DNA of 64,000 nt, taken from Anolis carolinensis. Its lineage: Eukaryota. Below the pieces are notes generated by a model. That model searched no databases. It saw only the letters and a program-made list of their open reading frames with translations, and was not told the DNA's origin. Position numbers and translations under genes: made by a program. The first letter of the stretch is position 1. Each line of letters begins with the position of its first letter. This document shows, in pieces, positions 6,281 through 63,408 of this stretch. The stretch is from positions 338,777,402 through 338,841,401 of the forward strand of contig NC_085841.1 of NCBI RefSeq assembly GCF_035594765.1. Reading direction: 5' to 3'.

Positions 6281-7959
6281 GGCAATAAAAGGACAAAGGA
6301 ATATGGCCCAGACAAGAGAAAACTTTATCTGATTGCTTCTATATGTGTGATAGGAAGCAAGAATGGTGTTCATCTCCACCTAATCTCCTGGCACACTGGA
6401 CCAGCTCCACCTCGAACTCACATGGGATAAATGAAGGGACTGGGGCTGGAGTGGAAAACAACTAGCCAGAACTGGGAGACTGAGACTTGGAGTGGAAAGT
6501 TACCAGCCAAAGTAGAGAGCTCAGACAAGGGGAAAATTCAAAAGGAAAATATCTAGTAACAAGTAGGTGCAGGAGAGGGACACAGGAGGGAAAATCGGCT
6601 GGTGAGAAAAAGCAGGAGCAGGAATACTGATAAGAGCTGGTGACAGAAAGAGTTAGAGATGAGGTACAAATCAGAGAAAATAGCCAGTGCACATGCTCAA
6701 GTTATTGACCATAAAACTGAGCTGTGTCTCAGTATGGCATGGCACTTTCTTCTGTTCACCCAGCAAGGTAATTTGGTCAAATTAACCTGTTGAATCATCT
6801 GCTTGCTTCCAGTATTTGATTGGATTAAAGAGACCCTGGAGGTTTTGGGGCCATTTGAGAATAAAGGGACATGGCAGTGAGTCCCAACACAGTAATAGTC
6901 TAAAGTATCCTTCAGGTATAATTCAGTATATGTAGACTCGTATCCTGTGCCTAATGCCCAAGTGTCATCTAGGAAATAAACCATATGATATGATCTTGCT
7001 AATCTATACAGACTTTATTTGAATATTTATCTTTTTTCCCCTAAAAAGTTATATAGCCACTCATCAACGTATGCAGTGAATAGTTGGGAAGAAGGCACTC
7101 ACAGTAATTGATGGACTTGCTAAATGGATGATACATAAATACACCCTAACTCCCCTCCCCTTCTCAAATAGATGAGCAATGGAATAAATTTTCATCCAGT
7201 TCCAGATATGGAACACATTTTGCTTCCAAGCATTTCTGATAAAAGATACTCAACCTGTAATACTGACTGATTAGGGAAGTGTTGCTCAAAATATTGGAAA
7301 TGTGGGGATATTGGAGAGGAAATAATGATAAAGCTTCCTTGCAATGGTAGTTAGCCTTATAGTCTAAAACTCTGCTTTCTGTTGCTATTAAAAAGATTTG
7401 TATTTCTGGAAGCCGTCAGCAAAATAAGTTGATCATCCCAGCAACCTCCTATTGATAAGTTCTATTTTTGTCCCTCAAGAGTATTTTGGTGGTATGTACA
7501 ATTGTAGGCCAATGAGGAAGAGTCAATACTAATTGATTAAGGAGACCATATGTCCTTCTCAGGTTCAAAGAGAGTATAGATTACTGATTTATGTGTGCAA
7601 GGTAGGGAGAAGGAAGGCATATATCACCCCTTTCTACAGGGATATAATTTGCAAGACCATACAAAACAGCCTGGTTAGAAATTGCCTCCATTAGGAGTAA
7701 AGTGAATTACTAACAGAGAAAATGATTTCTTAGAAGTTGTTTAACTGAGTTCCCAGTAGCTTAATTGAGTTTAATATGGCAAAATGTACAAAACACGTAG
7801 GTGGCAAGTATGAGAACATCATATCATAGTTTTGATATTAGTGAGGAGTGAATCTAAACCTGGTGCTGAACTTGTTTTCAGGACAGGGTTCAGCATCTTG
7901 AAAGGGTGATTTAAAACTTGGACTGAAACCCAGAGTAGATTCCCTGCCCAACTGACATT

Positions 7960-9139
7960 GGGAATGCCGTGGATGTAGCATATCTAGATTTCAGTAAGGC
8001 CTTCGACAAAGTCCCCCACGACCTTCTGGCAAACAAACTAGTAAAATGTGGGCTAGACAAAACTACGGTTAGGTGGATCTGTAATTGGCTAAGCGAACGA
8101 ACCCAAAGGGTGCTCACCAATGCGTCGTCTTCATCATGGAAAGAAGTGACAAGTGGAGTGCCGCAGGGCTCCGTCCTGGGCCCGGTTCTGTTCAACATCT
8201 TTATTAACGACTTAGACGAAGGGTTAGAAGGCACGATCATCAAGTTTGCAGATGACACCAAACTGGGAGGGATAGCTAACACTCCAGAAGACAGGAGCAG
8301 AATTCAAAACGATCTTGACAGACTAGAGAGATGGGCCGAAACTAACAAAATGAAGTTCAACAGGGACAAATGCAAGATACTTCACTTCGGCAGAAAAAAT
8401 GGAAATCAAAGATACAGAATGGGGGACGCCTGGCTTGACAGCAGTGTGTGCGAAAAAGATCTTGGAGTCCTCGTGGACAACAAGTTAAACATGAGCCTAC
8501 AATGTGATGCGGCAGCTAAAAAAGCCAATGGGATTTTGGCCTGCATCAATAGGGGAATAACGTCTAGATCCAGGGAAGTCATGCTCCCCCTCTATTCTGC
8601 CTTGGTCAGACCACACCTGGAATACTGTGTCCAGTTTTGGGCACCGCAGATGAAGGGAGATGCTGACAAGCTGGAAAGCGTCCAGAGGAGGGCAACTAAA
8701 ATGATTAAGGGTCTGGAGAACAAGCCCTATGAGGAGAGGCTTAAAGAGCTTGGCATGTTTAGCCTGCAGAAGAGAAGGCTGAGAGGAGACATGATAGCCA
8801 TGTACAAATATGTGAGGGGAAGTCATAGGGAGGAGGGAGCAAGCTTATTTTCTGCTGCCCTGCAGACTAGGACACGGAACAATGGCTTCAAACTACAGGA
8901 AAGGAGATTCCACCTGAACATCAGGAAGAACTTCCTCACTGTGAGGGCTGTTCGGCAGTGGAACTCTCTCCCCCGGGCCGTGGTGGAGGCTCCTTCTTTG
9001 GAGGCTTTTAAGCAGAGGCTGGATGGCCATCTGTCGGGGGTGCTTTGAATGCGATTTCCTGCTTCTTAGCGGGGGGTTGGACTAGATGGCCTTTGAGGTC
9101 TCTTCCAACTCTACTATTCTATGATTCTATGATTCTATG
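7960..9139 (+). mobile_element. Young 5'-truncated CR1 LINE with an uninterrupted RT/C-terminal ORF
   Basis: ORF 7969-9048 (359 aa; [20 protein letters not shown]), 3' UTR and (ATTCTATG)3 tail. Highly similar to the CR1 at 138-2949. Confidence 0.96.
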
Positions 9140-16467: not shown

Positions 16468-17137
16468 TGTCGCACCTCAGGTTAGCTTCACCTTGCTATA
16501 TACACCAAACTGCACACATGTTGAAGTCTTTTCAGTTTATTAGAAATTAGAAGATAAAAAGTTATTTAAAAGCAAAAGTGAAGTTCCAAAAGAACATTGC
16601 AAAATACCGTCTTAGAGAATAATTCCAGAAATCACAAGGAATAAACAAAGTCCCAATAGAGCATGACAAAGTCCCAAGAACATGAACACATAGGCTGCAA
16701 GATAATCCAGGAAAATGAGAACTTGCTTCTTGGTAGAACGAAAGTTGCTTTGACAAAGGTTTATCTCCAAACACATTGCTTTAATACCCTTTGCAAAAAT
16801 GAAAGCATTTCTTTGGCCTCTGACCTCCTTCTTGTTTGCTAGTCTCACACTCCTCCGAACCCTGAATTCCAAACGGTCAGCTCGATCCAAGGATCCTGTT
16901 TCATCAAGGTCAGCCTGCTCGTTAGTGTCAGCCAGCCTGCTATCAGACTGAGAACTATCCTCCTTTTCTAAGTCAATTTGCACCTGGCTAGTTTCAGTAT
17001 CATTAACATCATTCCCTGCTGTGGGAAAAACTCTCTGTTCCTCATCTTCTACAACAGGGACATTCTGAACCTGATTTTGAACCTGAATCCCATAATCCCC
17101 ATCAGAGTCACCCTGAGGTTCCAGCTGAGTCACAACA
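16468..17137 (-). mobile_element. Solo LTR 1 (670 bp)
   Basis: TG...CA termini, perfect 5-bp TSD CAACC (16463-16467, 17138-17142), minus-strand AATAAA at 16536-16541, TATA-like ggtattaaa near 16785. Confidence 0.88.
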
Positions 17138-45990: not shown

Positions 45991-46120
45991 NNNNNNNNNN
46001 NNNNNNNNNNNNNNNNNNNNNNNNNNNNNNNNNNNNNNNNNNNNNNNNNNNNNNNNNNNNNNNNNNNNNNNNNNNNNNNNNNNNNNNNNNNNNNNNNNNN
46101 NNNNNNNNNNNNNNNNNNNN
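45991..46120. other. Assembly gap (130 N)
   Basis: Run of N. Confidence 1.
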
Positions 46121-49622: not shown

Positions 49623-52056
49623 TAAAATCATTAAATCATTAAATAAGCACCAAGGAAGGATGGCAGTGGTGCTGGTGCTGGAGATAATAAATAATTTGCC
49701 AGAATAAACGTCCTTCCACAGTCTCAGCTAGAGAGAAGAGGAGAATATTGATGAGTGTTTGGAGCAACAAATCGGATCAGGTTAAATTCCGCACATGGAA
49801 TGTACTGCATTATTGATGGCTGTGTCTTCCTCTCCATCTTTCCCTGCAATGACAGGTGATGTTGATCCAAAGCTTATGGAAGCAATAGGAAATTGTGGCA
49901 ACGCACCGCTTAACCAGCATCACACTCTGAAATTCAGTTGGAAGATAGGATGGATTTACCTGGATTTTTTTCTTGACATTTAATGACCTTTTGAAGTTAC
50001 CTGATAGCAATGATAATCCATGGGCAATCCAGTTCTGTGCAAGATTTCAGTTGGAATTGTGATGATGTTTGTAATATACCTAGTGTGCCTGCCCTTTGAA
50101 ATACAAACACACTCTTGCTCCGTATACAAATGAAGCTTGGGAAGTTCCTTGCAAAAAGTACCCATCGTAAAGAAGCTGAAGTTTTGTTTTTTCTTTGTTC
50201 ATAAGATACTGTTAATGTTCAGTGTATTATTTTCTAGTAAACATTTGGAAATTGATTTTAATAAGACAGAGGCTTCTTATGGTACTGTACTAAATCATTT
50301 GAAAGTTAAAAAAACTGCTTTTTAATACTGTTCTTATCTTAATTTTGTATGCTTTAGCTATATGTGCTTATTGTATTTTATAAGCTGCCTTGAGTCCTCA
50401 TCTGAGAGGAAAGTGGGATATAAATGAAATAATGGATAGATTATAGTCTGGACTGCTACCCAACCCTCCCTGGTAGTAGACTCTATGTGGAAGGTGTGCA
50501 ATGGAAAACCTAGTCCTATTCAGGTATTATAAAGACTGGAGAAAATCATCACACCTGCCAAATTAGGGTTGCACCCAGTACCACCACTCTTAGCCTAGCA
50601 TGACTTTATTGTTCCACGTCACAATCACCCATACTTAAATGGTCTTCGTGTGCAGTGATCTATACAGGGAAAAGGGTCTTGTAAGGGGCAGAACACAGAC
50701 TACTCAGGGTTCTTCATCATATGGAAGCATCTGTCAATACATGAAATTCATGTGAAGGCTGTTCCACCAAAATTTAATTAATTAATTTCAATTCAATTTA
50801 TTTTAAGCTTATGTTTTGTATGTGTTTAAGGCATTGAATAATTGCCATATGTAAGCCGTCTTGAGTCCACTTCGGGGTAGAGAAAGGCAGGGTATAAATA
50901 GGGTAAATAAAAATTCAAGGTGTTGTGAATATTACTTTCATTGGGATTTGTGGCCTAGAAGGAAAGAGGTAAATCATCTATATCCACATGCCAGAAGTCC
51001 AGACCTCAACATGAAACTTTGTAACTGCTATTCACCGGGTTTTTCAATCATGCAATTTTTAGGCTTCCTAGATCTTATGGTCTGGGCCCCTTTCTAAGGA
51101 GAGAGGGAGGAAATTTAAGGCAAGAATACTGCCTTAAATTGGGTATGTTCTTTATTTGTAAAAAAATCCAATCTTCAGGGATGGAATATCAGAGCAAGAA
51201 ATCCTATTCATTTATTTTATTTTTAATTAATCTATTATTATTTCCTGCCTTTATCCCAGAAATGGGTTCAAAGCAATGCTGCTCTTATGTATTGATTTTA
51301 TATTTATTTGTTTAATTAATGTATTGTATTCTGACTTTTTTCCAGTACTGATTTCAAAGTGACTATACTGTATACATTATTTTTCATTTGTTAGCCCTAA
51401 TGTTTTTTATTCAAATGGCATATCTTGTGCAAACATGGTGATGTTTAAATGTAGTTTACTACTGTGAATCAGGTAGCAAAATATGAATAGGCTGGCCCAT
51501 AAGGAAAGAAATGAAATGAAAATTAGAGTTTTCTACGATTACAGATTTTAGGACCCCAGCAATACTGTTCATCATTATAACATATACGTAATGTGATTTG
51601 TTCAGGATGTGTGTAATCATGCTAAATGCAATCTTTCTGTATTATACTGGTAATCACAATATTTGATCATTATCTCTGCTGGGTAAAGTAAATAGATCTC
51701 AGCAACTACATTAAAACATCTATTCACATCACCATCATGCTTCATCAGACAGGAAAGGATAAGCCTTGGAGAAACAAAGAGAAGATAGACAAAATGCTGA
51801 ATTGTAGCACTGTGCACTTGGAAAGTCCCTTTGAATTCACTGAATTACTTCCAAGAGAATATTACATTCTATGTTAGTTCCAGGAGAAGACTCACTAGAT
51901 CAAAAGGAACTTGCATAGTCAACACTTAGGTAGGTTTCATTGACTACTTAGAACCCACAATTGGAGTTAGATCATTATATTTTTAAGCAGGACAAAAAAA
52001 ACCCAACATAGTTCCACGAATGTCTACTAGATACTGTTCTATAATCAAGGCAGAGG

Positions 52057-52068
52057 CCACTAGGGGGC
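52057..52068 (+). promoter_or_regulatory. CTCF consensus motif
   Basis: CCACTAGGGGGC matches the CCASYAGRKGGC core. Motif match only; no binding data. Confidence 0.5.
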
Positions 52069-52148
52069 ACCAGAGAGAGACATATTGTCCATTTTACAGG
52101 GGGAGAGTTGAAGGAGGAAAACATTTTCTCCTGTTTTTGCTGGTTATG

Positions 52149-53038
52149 TGTGATGTCTCATGGGCCTTGTAGTCCCGTTCCTAGTGCTATTGTGGCAGAT
52201 GAGGAGGAAAATTTGGGATTTCCACCGGTTCTGCTTGAATCGGAGCCTCGCCACCTGGAGGATGTTTGTCCTCAGGAAGTTAACCAAACAAGCCTTGGGC
52301 AGAATTCTCCCCCGTTTTCCCAAAAGGACAATTATAATAGAGATAGAGGGGCGAGGGAGGCTAATCGCCGGAGCCTCAGAATCGCTGCCAGACAATTAGC
52401 TGATTAGGTCTGCTTCCCTTGGGAAATTCTAAGGAGTCATGCATCTGGACACAGTTTGGGTTTCACTTCTTGTTCTCCAGGGAAAGTATTCTATTGGCGG
52501 GAAAACAAGACCCTATATAGGGGTTTTGCCGCAAGGGGAACCTTGCGGAGTCAATTTGTTCAGCTTGAGGAGAGAGATCGTGTGTAGACTTCGTACCCCA
52601 GTTCCCTGTTTCACGGATCAAGTTTTCAACCTAGCCTTGTTTCACGGATCAAGATTCCAGCCTTGTCTTGTCTCACGGACTTCTATGGACTCAGTTCTTG
52701 TTTCATGTTTGCCTTGTTTCAAGTTTGATCTAGCCAAGATTCAAGCCTATTTTCCAGCCTTGTTGTCAAGCTCCCTTGGTCTTTAAAGACCCTGTCATTC
52801 CCCACACCATTGCTTGGCAAGGTGTGTGTTTCGGTCAAGTGGATTATAACTTTGGACTTTAATATCTTATATTGGACAATATATTTCTGGACTATATTTG
52901 ACCTCACCTGAAAGGTCTGCTTTTGAACTATACTCTTCACTTGTTTTTATTGACTTTATATATTTCTTTAATAAAGATATTAGATAGATTCTGGTCTCTG
53001 CGCATGGTTATTGGTGCTCTGCAGCCTGGGACGTGACA
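52149..53038 (+). mobile_element. Solo LTR 2 (890 bp)
   Basis: TG...CA termini, perfect 5-bp TSD TTATG (52144-52148, 53039-53043), TATA-like cctatatag near 52512, AATAAA near 52970, internal tgtttcacggatcaag repeats. Confidence 0.9.
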
Positions 53039-56000
53039 TTATGCCCCCTTCCCCCTTCCCATATCATAAACTAGGGTTGTTTCCGCAACAAGAACATGTG
53101 TGGCAGGAATAACAGGAAAAACAGAGGAAAATAATTTAACTCCTTCAACCCACCCTCCACCACTATAAAATAGACCTCTCTTTAGCGCCCCTAGTGGCCC
53201 CTGCCTGGATAATGGAACAGTACCGTTTACAAAAACCTAAGTGCCCCTGTGCTGAATAGAACATACTTCCAGATTGACATCCATCAGGCAACAAACCTAG
53301 GCTTCAAGTCTATACCCATTTCTTTGGGAGTGAGTTCCATTGAACTTTATTTGGCTTATTTCTGAATAGACATGTAAAGTGGGCTTTTAAAAACAATTAA
53401 AACTTCCATCAGTTGAGCATGTGTCTCCAATTTCTTCTATAGATTTTATTGCCTGCGCCCTACTCACTGCTTCCTTTACATTCATAAAACCAATTATTGT
53501 GAATACACCCCATGGAATAAAGTAGGATTTACTTCACAGTAAATCTGAAATTGATTGTGCTCTTCATTAATTTTCATCTTAACATCTCCAGTTCTTTTTA
53601 CTTGTGTAGATGTGTCCACCTTGATTTGCATTTGAGATGATTTCATTCTCATATGAACAGCTTACATCACAGAACCATAGGTCCTTATCAGACAGTCAGG
53701 GGTAAAGCGGGGGACAGTGGAGAAAAATGCGGGGCAGTGGAGAGAACCATTACTCAGTTATGGAAAGTCACCGGGTGATCTTAGACTAGTCACACTCTTT
53801 CAGCCACAAAAAGCAGAGGCAAGCCCCCTCTGAACAAATTTTTGCCAATAAACACTTGTTAAGAGTCAGCAATGACTTGAATATGCACCAGAAAAGAACA
53901 ACAGTAACTGTTTTATCAACTACTGACAATAAATAAAAGGAAAACAACAAATGAAGGAGCAGCAAATAATAACAAAAAAGAAACAGCATAAAAGAATGAA
54001 AAAATATTTCTAGCCCGATTGATTTAACTGTAATTCATTTCTTCCAAGTCTATGTGCACAACAAATGTTATTAAAATGTCAACCTCCGGAAATACTTTTC
54101 AAAATACCATTACTTGGTCCTCTAAAAAGCCCATCCTAAAGGTAGCTTTAATTTGTCCGAGAATTAGTTTCCATAGTTCAAATGGTACCAATGTATTTGC
54201 TATTTTTACACAACATAAATGACCTGCTTTCGTAATGCCTACAAATAAAGACTAAGGACATACTCCCAAAATATTTTCTTTCCAATGCAAGAAAGCTTTT
54301 GAAGCCAATTTACAATTTGAGATTTATTATATGTGAATTTACATATGCTTGCTTTAAAGAGAAAAGAGCATTTTCTGTGTAGGGGATCATATTCCTGCAG
54401 AAAATCCTGCTTCCTAAGCAGAAAATGTTGTTTTCTATGTAAATCACCCACATGTGAATGTTCCACATAATAAGTCCCCAATTACAAAATTTTATCACAG
54501 GAAACACCTTTTGCTGTAAAGTAAACAATATTTTTGCATTAACTATGCAGAAAGTACCGTTTTCTGCGCAAAACAACCATATGTGAATTTTGTGCAGAAG
54601 TAGACCACAGCTACAATGGTTCTTGTCAGTCCAAATTTCTTCTCACTGGGGTTTTCCAACAGATTATTGATATGCAATTTGTTTGTAAACCAGGATAAAC
54701 AAAATAAACATGACCATAGATATATGCTATTTCTTCTTGCAAGCAGAAATAGCAACCATGTATACATATATCTCTCCATAACATCTACTAGAATCTACCT
54801 GAGCTGTGATATTTTAAAATTTTGCATTTGCTTGTTTTCCTTAACAGCTGAGTATGCACAGAAAAAGCACACAATAGAACCCCAAATGTTTTCAAAAGGT
54901 ACTGAGTCCATCTGAACAAATTTTCCATGAATCTAAAAAATATGTTGCATTATTTTGCTATTAAATGCAATTTTCCAAGCCCTGTACCAAAGAAATTAGA
55001 TAAATTTTGATAGTTTTGATCTGAACGTATTCTACCCTTGGCCAACAATGTGCTGCCACCCATTTTTCATTTTTTTTTTTGAGATTTGATACCGTTTGGA
55101 AACAAACTCCACAAATCGAATTTCTAGTTCCAACTAGAATAGAGAAACATTTACATAAGTTCCATTGATTCTATAGATCTATCCAACTCATCATTGCTAA
55201 AAATGGTCTTTAAGTCATTGTGACAGTAGAAAGCTGAGATTTGCTGTTGTTGATCTGCATTTCTAAACATTCCTCTCTATTGGCTGTGAAAATTAGGTTT
55301 CCTGGAAATCACAATCCAGTGATATCCATAGGGCCATACAATTCTTAACCCTCCATTACAACACGAGGCAATTCCTACTAGATGTTACAATGGATTATTT
55401 CTACTCTGGCAACCGAAAGACAGCTATGAAGAATCTGTAATGTAAAATAAATTATAAGAATTTAAAAAACTAGAATAGTAGAACAGGACTTAAACCTAAC
55501 AGAGTGAAAAAATGGTAATTTATTCAAGAATGTATGTCATAGCTCATCAATAGCAGAGGCAGCTTGCAAGTGAAACTATCAACCACCTCCAATGAAATGT
55601 AGATGAATCCTTCAGATAGCTGTGTCTTGTGTCCATTTTCTCCATGCCTGACTGTGGGGTGAATCGATCCCATTTATAGCCAAACACATTCAGTGAACTT
55701 CCAAGGCACATCATATTGGATCCACCTTGATCCTTGATTTACAAGTAAATCCATCTATTTACTTCTATTAGCAAATAAAGGAGCCAAGTGCAACTTACAA
55801 CCTGTCATTAAGAGAAATTGAAATGCTAGAGTGCTGTAATGGTTAGAGTTGGACTCAGTCATGTATTATAGCTGGTAGCTGTATTTTGCATAATTAATTT
55901 GAAATTTTAAGGCCCTGAGATGAGTATTAGTATCAAATGAATAAATCAATGTTTTGAATACCAGAAAATGAATATAGTGCTGTAATGGGTATAAGGGAAA

Positions 56001-61244: not shown

Positions 61245-61865
61245 TTAATTCCTGTCTTCAAGTAATGATTTGTTTTCATGTTCCCTTTCTTTGGTTTCAC
61301 TGGGGATAATTCCATTCTCCAAACCCAAGTGTTGCTCAATACAGTCAGTGAGGACAGCAGTACTAGAGTGGTCCGAGTGACACCCTTTCTCAGAATCCTC
61401 CTCTTTCTTCTCTTCGTCCAAGGAGTAGTTCCGGAATGTCTCGTATATTTTCCGTACATCTTCCGGAATACACTTTTTAAGGTCTTTGTTTTTCCTCTTG
61501 GTCAACTTGGACGAAGAGCCAAATTTGTTGATGATGTTGTCCTCGGATGCCCCCTGCCCGTGCTTGGTCAACTGCTCTGATCCTTTAAGGCGCAAGTTGT
61601 TCGGTTTGCTGTTAATGCTTTCCTGAGATGAAGCCTTGAAGTGGCCGCTGTCCAAGGCAGCAAAGACGCAGCGCTTCTCTGGGGACAGCATGTCCAATGA
61701 ATGGGCTCTCTGGTCCAGACCAAGGCGCCGGCGCTCCATGCTACGGATGGTGGCTGCCCGTTGGAGCTTATCATGGATCTCCACACTCAACCGTCGGCGG
61801 GTTTCTCTGAACTCTGCAGTCACATTAGCCTTCCATTCAGCTGCATGGGCTTTTATTTCACCAAC
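61245..61865 (-). CDS. KCNK10: KCNK10 (TREK-2) last coding exon, cytoplasmic C-terminus
   Basis: Acceptor (ttgcaaag|GTTGGT), then [65 protein letters not shown]...SLLEDRN*. This matches the vertebrate TREK-2 C-terminus, including the RRRLS PKA site. 621 nt, phase 0, TAA stop at 61245-61247. Confidence 0.97.
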
Positions 61866-63408
61866 CTTTGCAAGAGGATTAATAAAGTTGAAAAAAGAGA
61901 GAAAGGAGGAAATCTTAAAATATTTGTCAATAACAACATATTAAAGAAGCACTTCTGATCAATTTTAAAAACTGGTTATTATCAGCCAGTTCATTTCCAA
62001 ATGGTTTTTGTCTACTTCCTGACTTCCATTAATACAATTTAAAGTAATGCATTTAGAGCTAAAAGGAAAACAACATGAGTCAAATGCCTCCTTTCTAGGA
62101 GCTATTAAAGGCATAGGAACTCCCTTTGGGCCCACTGTTATTGTAAAGCTCTAACATATAATTACAACATAATGCAAAGCATAAGGACTATTGTTATGTA
62201 GGGTACCTGATTTAAATAATAACTGGCAGAATAAGAGTAAATTGTACGTAATAGAAGAGGTAAATGTGCTTATATAGTAGCCTTCAATTATACATTGAGA
62301 TTCTTACTGCTGGTGTATTTTCTTGTTGCATAAAATGGATTTCCTGGAAACAGTCCTGGGAATACACATACACCCTTCTTCAAATGCTTTGATCATCAAA
62401 GTGCACTAAGTCAATTCATGGATCCTTTCTTTCACCTTATAGGATCAATGCTACAGTTCTACTAAGTGCCTCCAGACAGAATGCTGAAAGGCTCAAAAGC
62501 AATTTCAGTGGACTCAGTGATGAAGCTCTTTGTATCCCACCTTAACTGAAGAAAGACTGCTTGAAAGTGCGCAGAAGCCTCCTTTGTGGCCATTTCTACA
62601 CTTCAGAATTTTCTCCCAAGGGCTCCCAACCGGTCATCTTTCTTCTATTATCTTCTCCAGGTCTAAGAATGCCTCTTAATCTTCTGAGTTCAATTTAGTA
62701 TTGTTGATCTGGATGCATTTTAATGTTGCTGTTTCAATCTACAAGGATTGTCTTTGTTGTGCTGACAATGTGTACTTTACATTTAAATTGCCTTTAAAAC
62801 TTACTGTGAGCCATTCTGGGAATTGCTTTCAGCAGTGGAAGGGTAGGCTATGCGTTTTCTAAATCAAGGGTAGGGCACGTCTCATGTGGACTTCTCAAAG
62901 CTCCCTGGATTGATCTGATGGCATTACTATCAGCTCTCCACATTCGCTGGGTTTAGGGGCCAAGAACCTCCATGAAAGTGAAAAAATGCAAATAAACTGC
63001 TATTTTCTTACCTAAGAGAATTTCTAGGTCTTCCAGCATGACTTTATGGTCAACTTTCACTGGAAGACGGCCATAAAATCCCATTGAAGGACCTAGAAAG
63101 GTGTTCTCTCTGGAGGGTTTTCACAACAGAATCACATTGGAAAACACAGAGATTCCCAAAGAAAACATTTTAGTCAAATCTGTGAATAATAAAATCCAGA
63201 TAAGTCAAAGCCATAAATGAGGAGGTATGGCTGTATTTGCTTTGCCACCAGAAAATCAGTGGCACAACTTTCTGCTCAATTTCAGTAGAGTGACAGCAAG
63301 TTTCTAATCTCTCTTCTACATGAATGAGACCAAAAAATAATAATACTATTATTATTGCACCAATAAGCACAGAAAATCATGTGAAATCAATCATTTTTCA
63401 GTAATTAC

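Follow-up and report, generated by a model that had tools for sequence, protein, structure and literature searches.

The open reading frame at the start of solo LTR 2 is almost certainly the LTR-encoded C-terminal tail of a lizard chromovirus integrase, which has been stranded in a solo LTR of the window (the whole 64,000-nucleotide stretch of Anolis carolinensis DNA analysed here). The frame translates into the 85 residues VMSHGPCSPVPSAIVADEEENLGFPP...REANRRSLRIAARQLAD* and comprises, as the first-pass annotation had reported, an acidic segment within DEEENLGFPP and a terminal RRSLRIA motif, which belongs to the C-terminal sequence RRSLRIAARQLAD*. It is fairly probable that both parts of a wider reading hold, namely that the peptide forms the C-terminal 85 residues of a chromovirus integrase and that the motif would act as a tether to the acidic patch of the nucleosome. 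The coordinates are compiled in the table below.

Features of solo LTR 2 and of its sister solo LTR 1 in the window
Feature	Position	Strand	Basis or remark
Solo LTR 2, Tf1/sushi-type chromovirus (Ty3/Gypsy)	52149..53038	+	890 bp, TG...CA ends
TTATG, left 5-bp target-site duplication of LTR 2	52144..52148	.	sequence
TTATG, right 5-bp target-site duplication of LTR 2	53039..53043	.	sequence
C-terminal 85 aa of integrase and stop, U3-encoded, severed from upstream pol	52150..52407	+	translation, junction comparison
Acidic segment DEEENLGF, kept as EE..GF/FP, not FxGF	52198..52221	+	copy comparison
RRSLRIAA, HMGN-like motif, putative anchor to the nucleosome acidic patch	52366..52389	+	motif comparison
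TATATA, likely promoter of LTR 2, 3' of the ORF	52514..52519	+	sequence
10 nt complementary to the primer-binding site of the element; probable 5' end of the self-priming RNA (U3/R border)	52545..52554	+	
AATAAA, likely poly(A) signal of LTR 2	52970..52975	+	sequence
Solo LTR 1, sister lineage, GGTTG duplication, same-phase tail with DEEQRVFP and RRSVRLAN	16468..17137	-	670 bp
RRSVRLAN motif of LTR 1	16834..16857	-	translation

LTR 2 derives, as a solo LTR, from a chromovirus of the Tf1/sushi type (Ty3/Gypsy group). A genome search recovered at least 40 scored copies with 95-99% identity; the 30 that were fetched comprise 19 solo LTRs with 5-bp duplications, four 5' LTRs, six 3' LTRs and one unresolved copy. 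Four pairs of neighbouring family members were retrieved, and all of them (4/4) proved to be two-LTR elements of 4.5-6.2 kb. Pfam searches with six ORFs of one of these elements, L033, detected gag, zinc knuckle, protease, RT, RNase H, integrase zinc finger, rve, SH3_Tf2-1 and Chromo in this order, so that gag followed by PR-RT-RH-IN lies between two LTRs, as in chromoviruses. The chromodomain resides at the integrase C-terminus behind the GPY/F-SH3 module (PF24626, E 8e-13; PF00385, E 5e-10), it matches HP1/CBX chromodomains, and it presumably contains the aromatic cage, which we assigned by eye. The best PDB match is Ty3 Gag-Pol, and the closest named proteins are the UniRef Anolis carolinensis entries called 'Gypsy retrotransposon integrase-like protein 1' (P0002-P0006, P0122, P0123). 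In these gene models the tail follows the chromodomain with 71-92% identity, and their entries mention neither an LTR origin nor the motif. Moreover, the element has the hallmark of self-priming: a 10-nt complement of its primer site is found about 31 nt after TATATA in 4/4 copies of the LTR 2 family. L124 has a different 10-nt pair of primer site and LTR complement, and L115 and L126 match over 6-7 nt only. Primer site and complement thus change together between L031-L034 and L124, which supports self-priming, a mechanism that the part of PMC6317226 available to us describes for Tf1/sushi chromoviruses of yeast and vertebrates, where it replaces the tRNA primer site. The element is widespread, as a pattern for the junction between internal region and LTR occurs at 2,419 places in the genome. 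The first 100 of them are spread across 63 Mb of contig 1, and the junctions listed have a density of about 1.6 per Mb on this contig versus 1.3 per Mb overall. By this spacing the copies look dispersed, and they may not be concentrated at centromeres.

In all four two-LTR copies the internal ORF enters the LTR in phase +1 and ends at LTR base 256 (stop 257-259). In L033 this ORF has 445 residues with rve, SH3_Tf2-1 and Chromo matches, and it reads ...chromodomain...GLEEGDS|VMSHG...RRSLRIAARQLAD* before it ends in the LTR tail. Since the integrase frame crosses into the 3' LTR in the same phase and with the same stop, the ORF of LTR 2 corresponds to the integrase C-terminal tail. Among the 30 fetched copies, the open codons upstream of the LTR number 121-461 in 6/6 copies that are preceded by a polypurine tract, versus 2-88 in the other 24. 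We then inspected the first 30 of the 2,419 junctions, which were selected by their DNA pattern (polypurine tract) alone and 25 of which belong to one young family. The frame runs from the chromodomain through DS|V into the LTR in 30/30 cases, in one of which a stop precedes the junction by 8 codons, and the tail ends in RRS[AT]RIAA in 29/30. A second pattern, which excludes the start of the young family, yielded 19 places. Of these, 11 have the motif in frame, 3 have it frame-shifted and 5 do not have it: L172 and L187 are one residue off, L182 has none, L186 is deleted and L185 is not an element. As a control we used a Gypsy family that does not have a chromodomain and that stops before its own LTR in 30/30 loci, which shows that reading through into the LTR is no default. 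This family (L116-L118) surfaced in the PF24626 search and served only as a control; its members are young and abundant, with a single long ORF of 1,553-1,601 codons and LTRs of about 300 bp, and L118 lies inside a tandem array. A continuation of the frame past the tail stop was also considered and rejected, as its length varies from 4 to 125 codons and is not conserved.

The sister lineage represented by solo LTR 1 has the tail as well. Its frame, T|GTT GTG, is in the same phase as that of LTR 2, with DEEQRVFP at 17046 and RRSVRLA at 16857. The two LTRs had been described as not visibly alignable as DNA, and indeed blastn returns no match between LTR 1 and LTR 2; a direct comparison of their tails gives a weak match of about 19% identity (E 0.04-0.05). 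The LTR 1-like loci L115, L124 and L126 show the same DS|V junction, and their chromodomain regions are about 61% identical to the LTR 2 family. The common phase of LTR 1 and LTR 2 is therefore explained by an integrase-LTR junction that was inherited by common descent. The first-pass annotation had attributed the shared phase to selection at the protein level. Selection on the frame stands, as outlined below, but the reason for the frame had been missed: the pol ORF crosses the polypurine tract and continues into the 3' LTR, and the phase is inherited with this junction. No full-length element close to LTR 1 was seen in the flanks of its 30 best genome matches. Three pattern searches for such a relative gave mainly solo LTRs (loose pattern), five loci of which two have kept the integrase (primer-site pattern), and three loci of which one has an integrase, at the same place as L115 (junction pattern). 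The open frame of LTR 1 itself (16612-17136, minus strand) extends beyond the usual stop of its relatives, which lies about 20 codons after the motif; this longer ORF is peculiar to the window copy.

Purifying selection on the tail frame at the level of the protein, which had been suspected from the LTRs alone, is supported by several comparisons. In 15 pairs among six individual copies, which are not independent, dN/dS (NG86) is 0.17-0.66 in the tail frame versus 0.61-3.46 in the other plus frames; in the integrase region it is 0.06-0.14 (10 pairs). The same frame continued after the stop also remains below 1 (0.34-0.84), so that dN/dS alone is no clean test. The tail differences are, however, distributed over codon positions 1/2/3 as 60/55/101 (p 1.4e-4; six pairs among four copies, not independent), whereas the counts after the stop are 27/31/37 (p 0.45) and 93/70/88 (p 0.17). 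Moreover, the six pairs have no indel in the tail as opposed to 6-18 after the stop. The motif R[RK]SxR[LI] is found in phase +1 in 73/107 LTR copies, while 7 copies have it in a different plus frame and 0 in a minus frame, compared with 41/25,680 frames in shuffled controls; the 107 copies are 110 loci minus three without a located start, and being related they are not independent trials. The motif is thus more frequent in this frame than expected by chance. Its variants RRSLRIAA, RRSARIAA, RRSARLAE, RRSVRLAN and RRSARLAR occur across U3 lineages that are barely alignable as DNA, the Arg, Ser and Ile/Leu residues being encoded by differing codons between lineages. Finally, the motif occurs only once in the 1,211-residue Pol, at its C-terminal end.

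The frame might instead be open merely because the element is young and reads through by default, with the motif kept by descent or as a promoter element at the DNA level. LTR 2 copies that are 95-99% alike, one ancestor common to all lineages and a dN/dS below 1 beyond the stop would all fit such a scenario. We nevertheless consider it improbable, because third-position bias and absence of indels both end at the stop codon, because there are synonymous changes within the motif, and because the family without chromodomain stops before its LTR in 30/30 loci. Thus, lizard LTRs that are annotated as non-coding repeats carry protein-coding constraint.

The constraint applies to the integrase tail, and the window copy is probably an ordinary, silent solo LTR. 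Its ORF ends 107 nt upstream of TATATA (52514) and 138 nt upstream of the position at which the RNA would begin (52545). In the 5' LTR, the RNA of the element would therefore begin past the ORF; only the copy in the 3' LTR would then be translated, and a solo copy most likely stays silent. Reverse transcription would copy U3 to both ends, which would account for the presence of the ORF in every LTR. The L033 stretch is covered by contigs from four runs whose kind is uncertain, and these do not reveal start, strand or level. The in-LTR ATG at 52153 had raised the prospect of a stand-alone micropeptide, and a related possibility is that the ORF was exapted as a host exon. The ATG is present in the LTR 2 lineage, and three gene models (P0145, P0177, P0196) end in the LTR tail. 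Still, expression from solo LTRs in either form is very unlikely: both the TATA box and the likely RNA start lie downstream of the ORF, the ATG is missing from the LTR 1, L172/L176-L178 and L182/L187 lineages, and solo copies show one-off changes in the motif (5/30), as expected if selection ceases once a copy has inserted. All three gene models were built automatically, and one of them is a UniRef Anolis cation-transporting ATPase. They are probably artefacts of gene prediction and possibly cases of exonisation; an integrase tail encoded in the LTR explains why automatic models end in this peptide.

The acidic segment of the tail recurs as EE..GF/FP in 77/107 copies, and D17, E18, E20, N21, G23 and F24 are invariant in eight aligned tails. 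It had been likened to the FxGF motifs that bind LEDGF and other TFIIS N-terminal domains (TNDs), which would make it a TND-interacting motif (TIM) tethering the integrase to LEDGF/HRP2 or to another protein with such a domain. According to the accessible part of PMC9987994, FxGF is essential for partners of LEDGF and HRP2, both phenylalanines filling a pocket, and some TIMs do without it. The conservation of the segment would suit a TIM, but LTR 2 has NLGF rather than FxGF, LTR 1 has RVFP or GGFP instead, and neither FxGF nor the proposed pattern [DE]+..[FL].GF occurs in any of the 107 copies. In addition, there is no clear sign of the helix that a TIM requires ahead of its acidic linker, the region being proline-rich and predicted as coil in a low-confidence model. 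We therefore regard a TIM as very improbable. In our preferred reading the acidic middle of the tail would be a flexible linker.

The basic end of the tail, RRSxR[LI], shares its pattern with nucleosome-binding proteins. In the parts of PMC13347269 and PMC12480509 available to us, the HMGN core is given as RRSARLSA, the corresponding sequences as RRSSRLTS in Dsup and RRSARIAT in yeast Dot5, and arginines 1, 2 and 5 as required for nucleosome binding via the acidic patch. The lizard tails fit this pattern as RRSxR[LI], whose arginines occupy the same three positions; the match spans six residues and was made by eye. Judged by this likeness, the motif is somewhat more probably than not an HMGN-like nucleosome anchor: it would tether the integration complex to the H2A-H2B acidic patch in the manner of HMGN. 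The chromodomain, a methyl-lysine reader, together with the arginine anchor would then allow two-point binding of the nucleosome, which in turn may favour broad integration that is not restricted to centromeres. A single-sequence fold of chromodomain and tail places the motif in a predicted helix (residues 163-189), with a mean pLDDT of 56 and the chromodomain not recovered; such a helix would also fit other binding modes. When tail residues 54-85 were modelled in complex with H2A and H2B of the same genome (score 0.02, mark 0.34), the outcome was counted neither way, the method being unproven on peptides. No Pfam family covers the tail, and its sequence was not found in the ESM Atlas.

Outside Anolis, where many homologues are unreliable gene models, the strict motif follows the chromodomain in 1/111 homologues, in 1/35 of the longer ones and in 0/98 single-chromodomain representatives. 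The latter come from a set of 138 new ids, from which proteins with several chromodomains and two tail-only matches had been set aside. The snake tails P0011 and P0015 are acidic and then basic and do not have the motif. Together with the relatives P0179, P0198 and P0236, they show a similar junction and an acidic tail, and the complete members of this group end in other basic stretches (DARRRR, QKRGRP). Two chromovirus integrases from metagenomes, P0067 and P0160, carry RRSSRL or RKSKRL a short way past the chromodomain, by chance or convergence.

The main rival to an acidic-patch anchor is a role in nuclear localisation or nucleic acid binding, in which the tail belongs to the integrase and its basic end serves as nuclear localisation signal (NLS) or as a DNA/RNA-binding helix. 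The relatives P0011, P0015 and P0179, whose acidic-then-basic tails have other basic ends, would be consistent with this, as would the helix predicted by the low-confidence model, and the Ty1 integrase is reported to have its NLS in the C-terminal tail. Charge alone, however, needs no fixed R-R-S-x-R-[LI] spacing, and this spacing is kept across poorly alignable lineages in which the codons have changed. Moreover, classical NLSs are lysine-based, and the LTR 2 tail contains a single lysine. We thus judge this rival unlikely, though it deserves to be taken seriously, and continue to favour an anchor to the acidic patch.

A few other features of the window are of note. LTR 2 is nested in a small MITE-like element with inverted arms at 52032-52147 and 53109-53222, which are 72% alike over 123 nt and 89% alike over the outer 35 nt. 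Both arms contain CCACTAGGGG, which we take to resemble a CTCF motif. A 231-codon open frame without a Pfam match (61245-61940, minus strand), presumably similar to the last coding exon of the two-pore potassium channel gene KCNK10/TREK-2, has LTR 2 about 8 kb beyond its stop. At the other end of the window, 34-2543 and 7939-9048 (plus strand) contain LINE endonuclease and reverse transcriptase frames according to Pfam, which are 95% alike over 908 nt and which we assume to be CR1-like. Finally, positions 45991-46120 are a run of 130 N.

How the integrases of vertebrate Ty3/Gypsy elements are targeted to chromatin is largely open. If the proposed anchor holds, a retrotransposon integrase would dock on the acidic patch, and the HMGN-like motif would extend beyond HMGN, Dsup and Dot5. 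Plant CRM elements are already known to extend their coding into the 3' LTR, and a lizard HMGN-like integrase tail is not found in the literature searched. Repbase Reports, subscription journals and supplements being outside its scope, this search found no vertebrate chromodomain integrase with an LTR-encoded HMGN-like tail and, within the same limits, no HMGN-like motif in a retrotransposon integrase. The three papers found that join RRSARL, transposon and nucleosome concern Dot5, Dsup and HMG proteins, and the part of PMC3601003 at hand, which deals with LTR structure, covers Sushi LTRs and does not contain the words ORF and Anolis.

The element shares with the Tf1/sushi chromoviruses (V-clade, Sushi-ichi and Amn), as far as they are described in the available part of PMC6317226, the order gag-PR-RT-RH-IN, an SH3 module and a chromodomain at the integrase end, self-priming and TG...CA LTRs. 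Unlike in these elements, the lizard integrase continues past the chromodomain for 85-150 codons into U3, whereas most of the homologues found in fungi, fish and frogs stop within a few residues of the chromodomain or have unrelated tails. In plant CRM elements of group A, according to the accessible sections of PMC3059260, coding likewise extends into the 3' LTR and yields a targeting CR motif that replaces the chromodomain. The lizard integrase resembles them in this layout, and it keeps its chromodomain, to which the tail is added. With HMGN, Dsup and Dot5 the lizard tails share R-R-S-x-R-[LI] and arginines 1, 2 and 5; RRSARIAA is one residue from the Dot5 sequence RRSARIAT, and RRSARLAE has six residues in common with HMGN. 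In contrast to HMGN proteins, the motif sits on a retrotransposon integrase, is coded by an LTR and is only predicted to bind. Foamy virus Gag, KSHV LANA and CMV IE1 also use a short arginine anchor that docks a mobile genome on the acidic patch, and loss of the foamy virus Gag anchor redistributes integration (PMC9040877, in the part available). These anchors belong to Gag or nuclear antigens and have other sequences, whereas the putative one described here is borne by an integrase. It is tempting to go one step further, though here we are slightly more doubtful than confident: a lizard chromovirus clade may have gained a second, U3-coded tether, consisting of an acidic linker and an HMGN-mimicking anchor, which would form a bivalent reader with the chromodomain. 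The fast-evolving U3 would then be an exchangeable targeting cassette, as the different basic ends in snakes would illustrate, and every solo LTR would scatter a nucleosome-binding exon through the genome, the layout being convergent with plant CRM elements and the chemistry with foamy virus Gag, LANA and HMGN.
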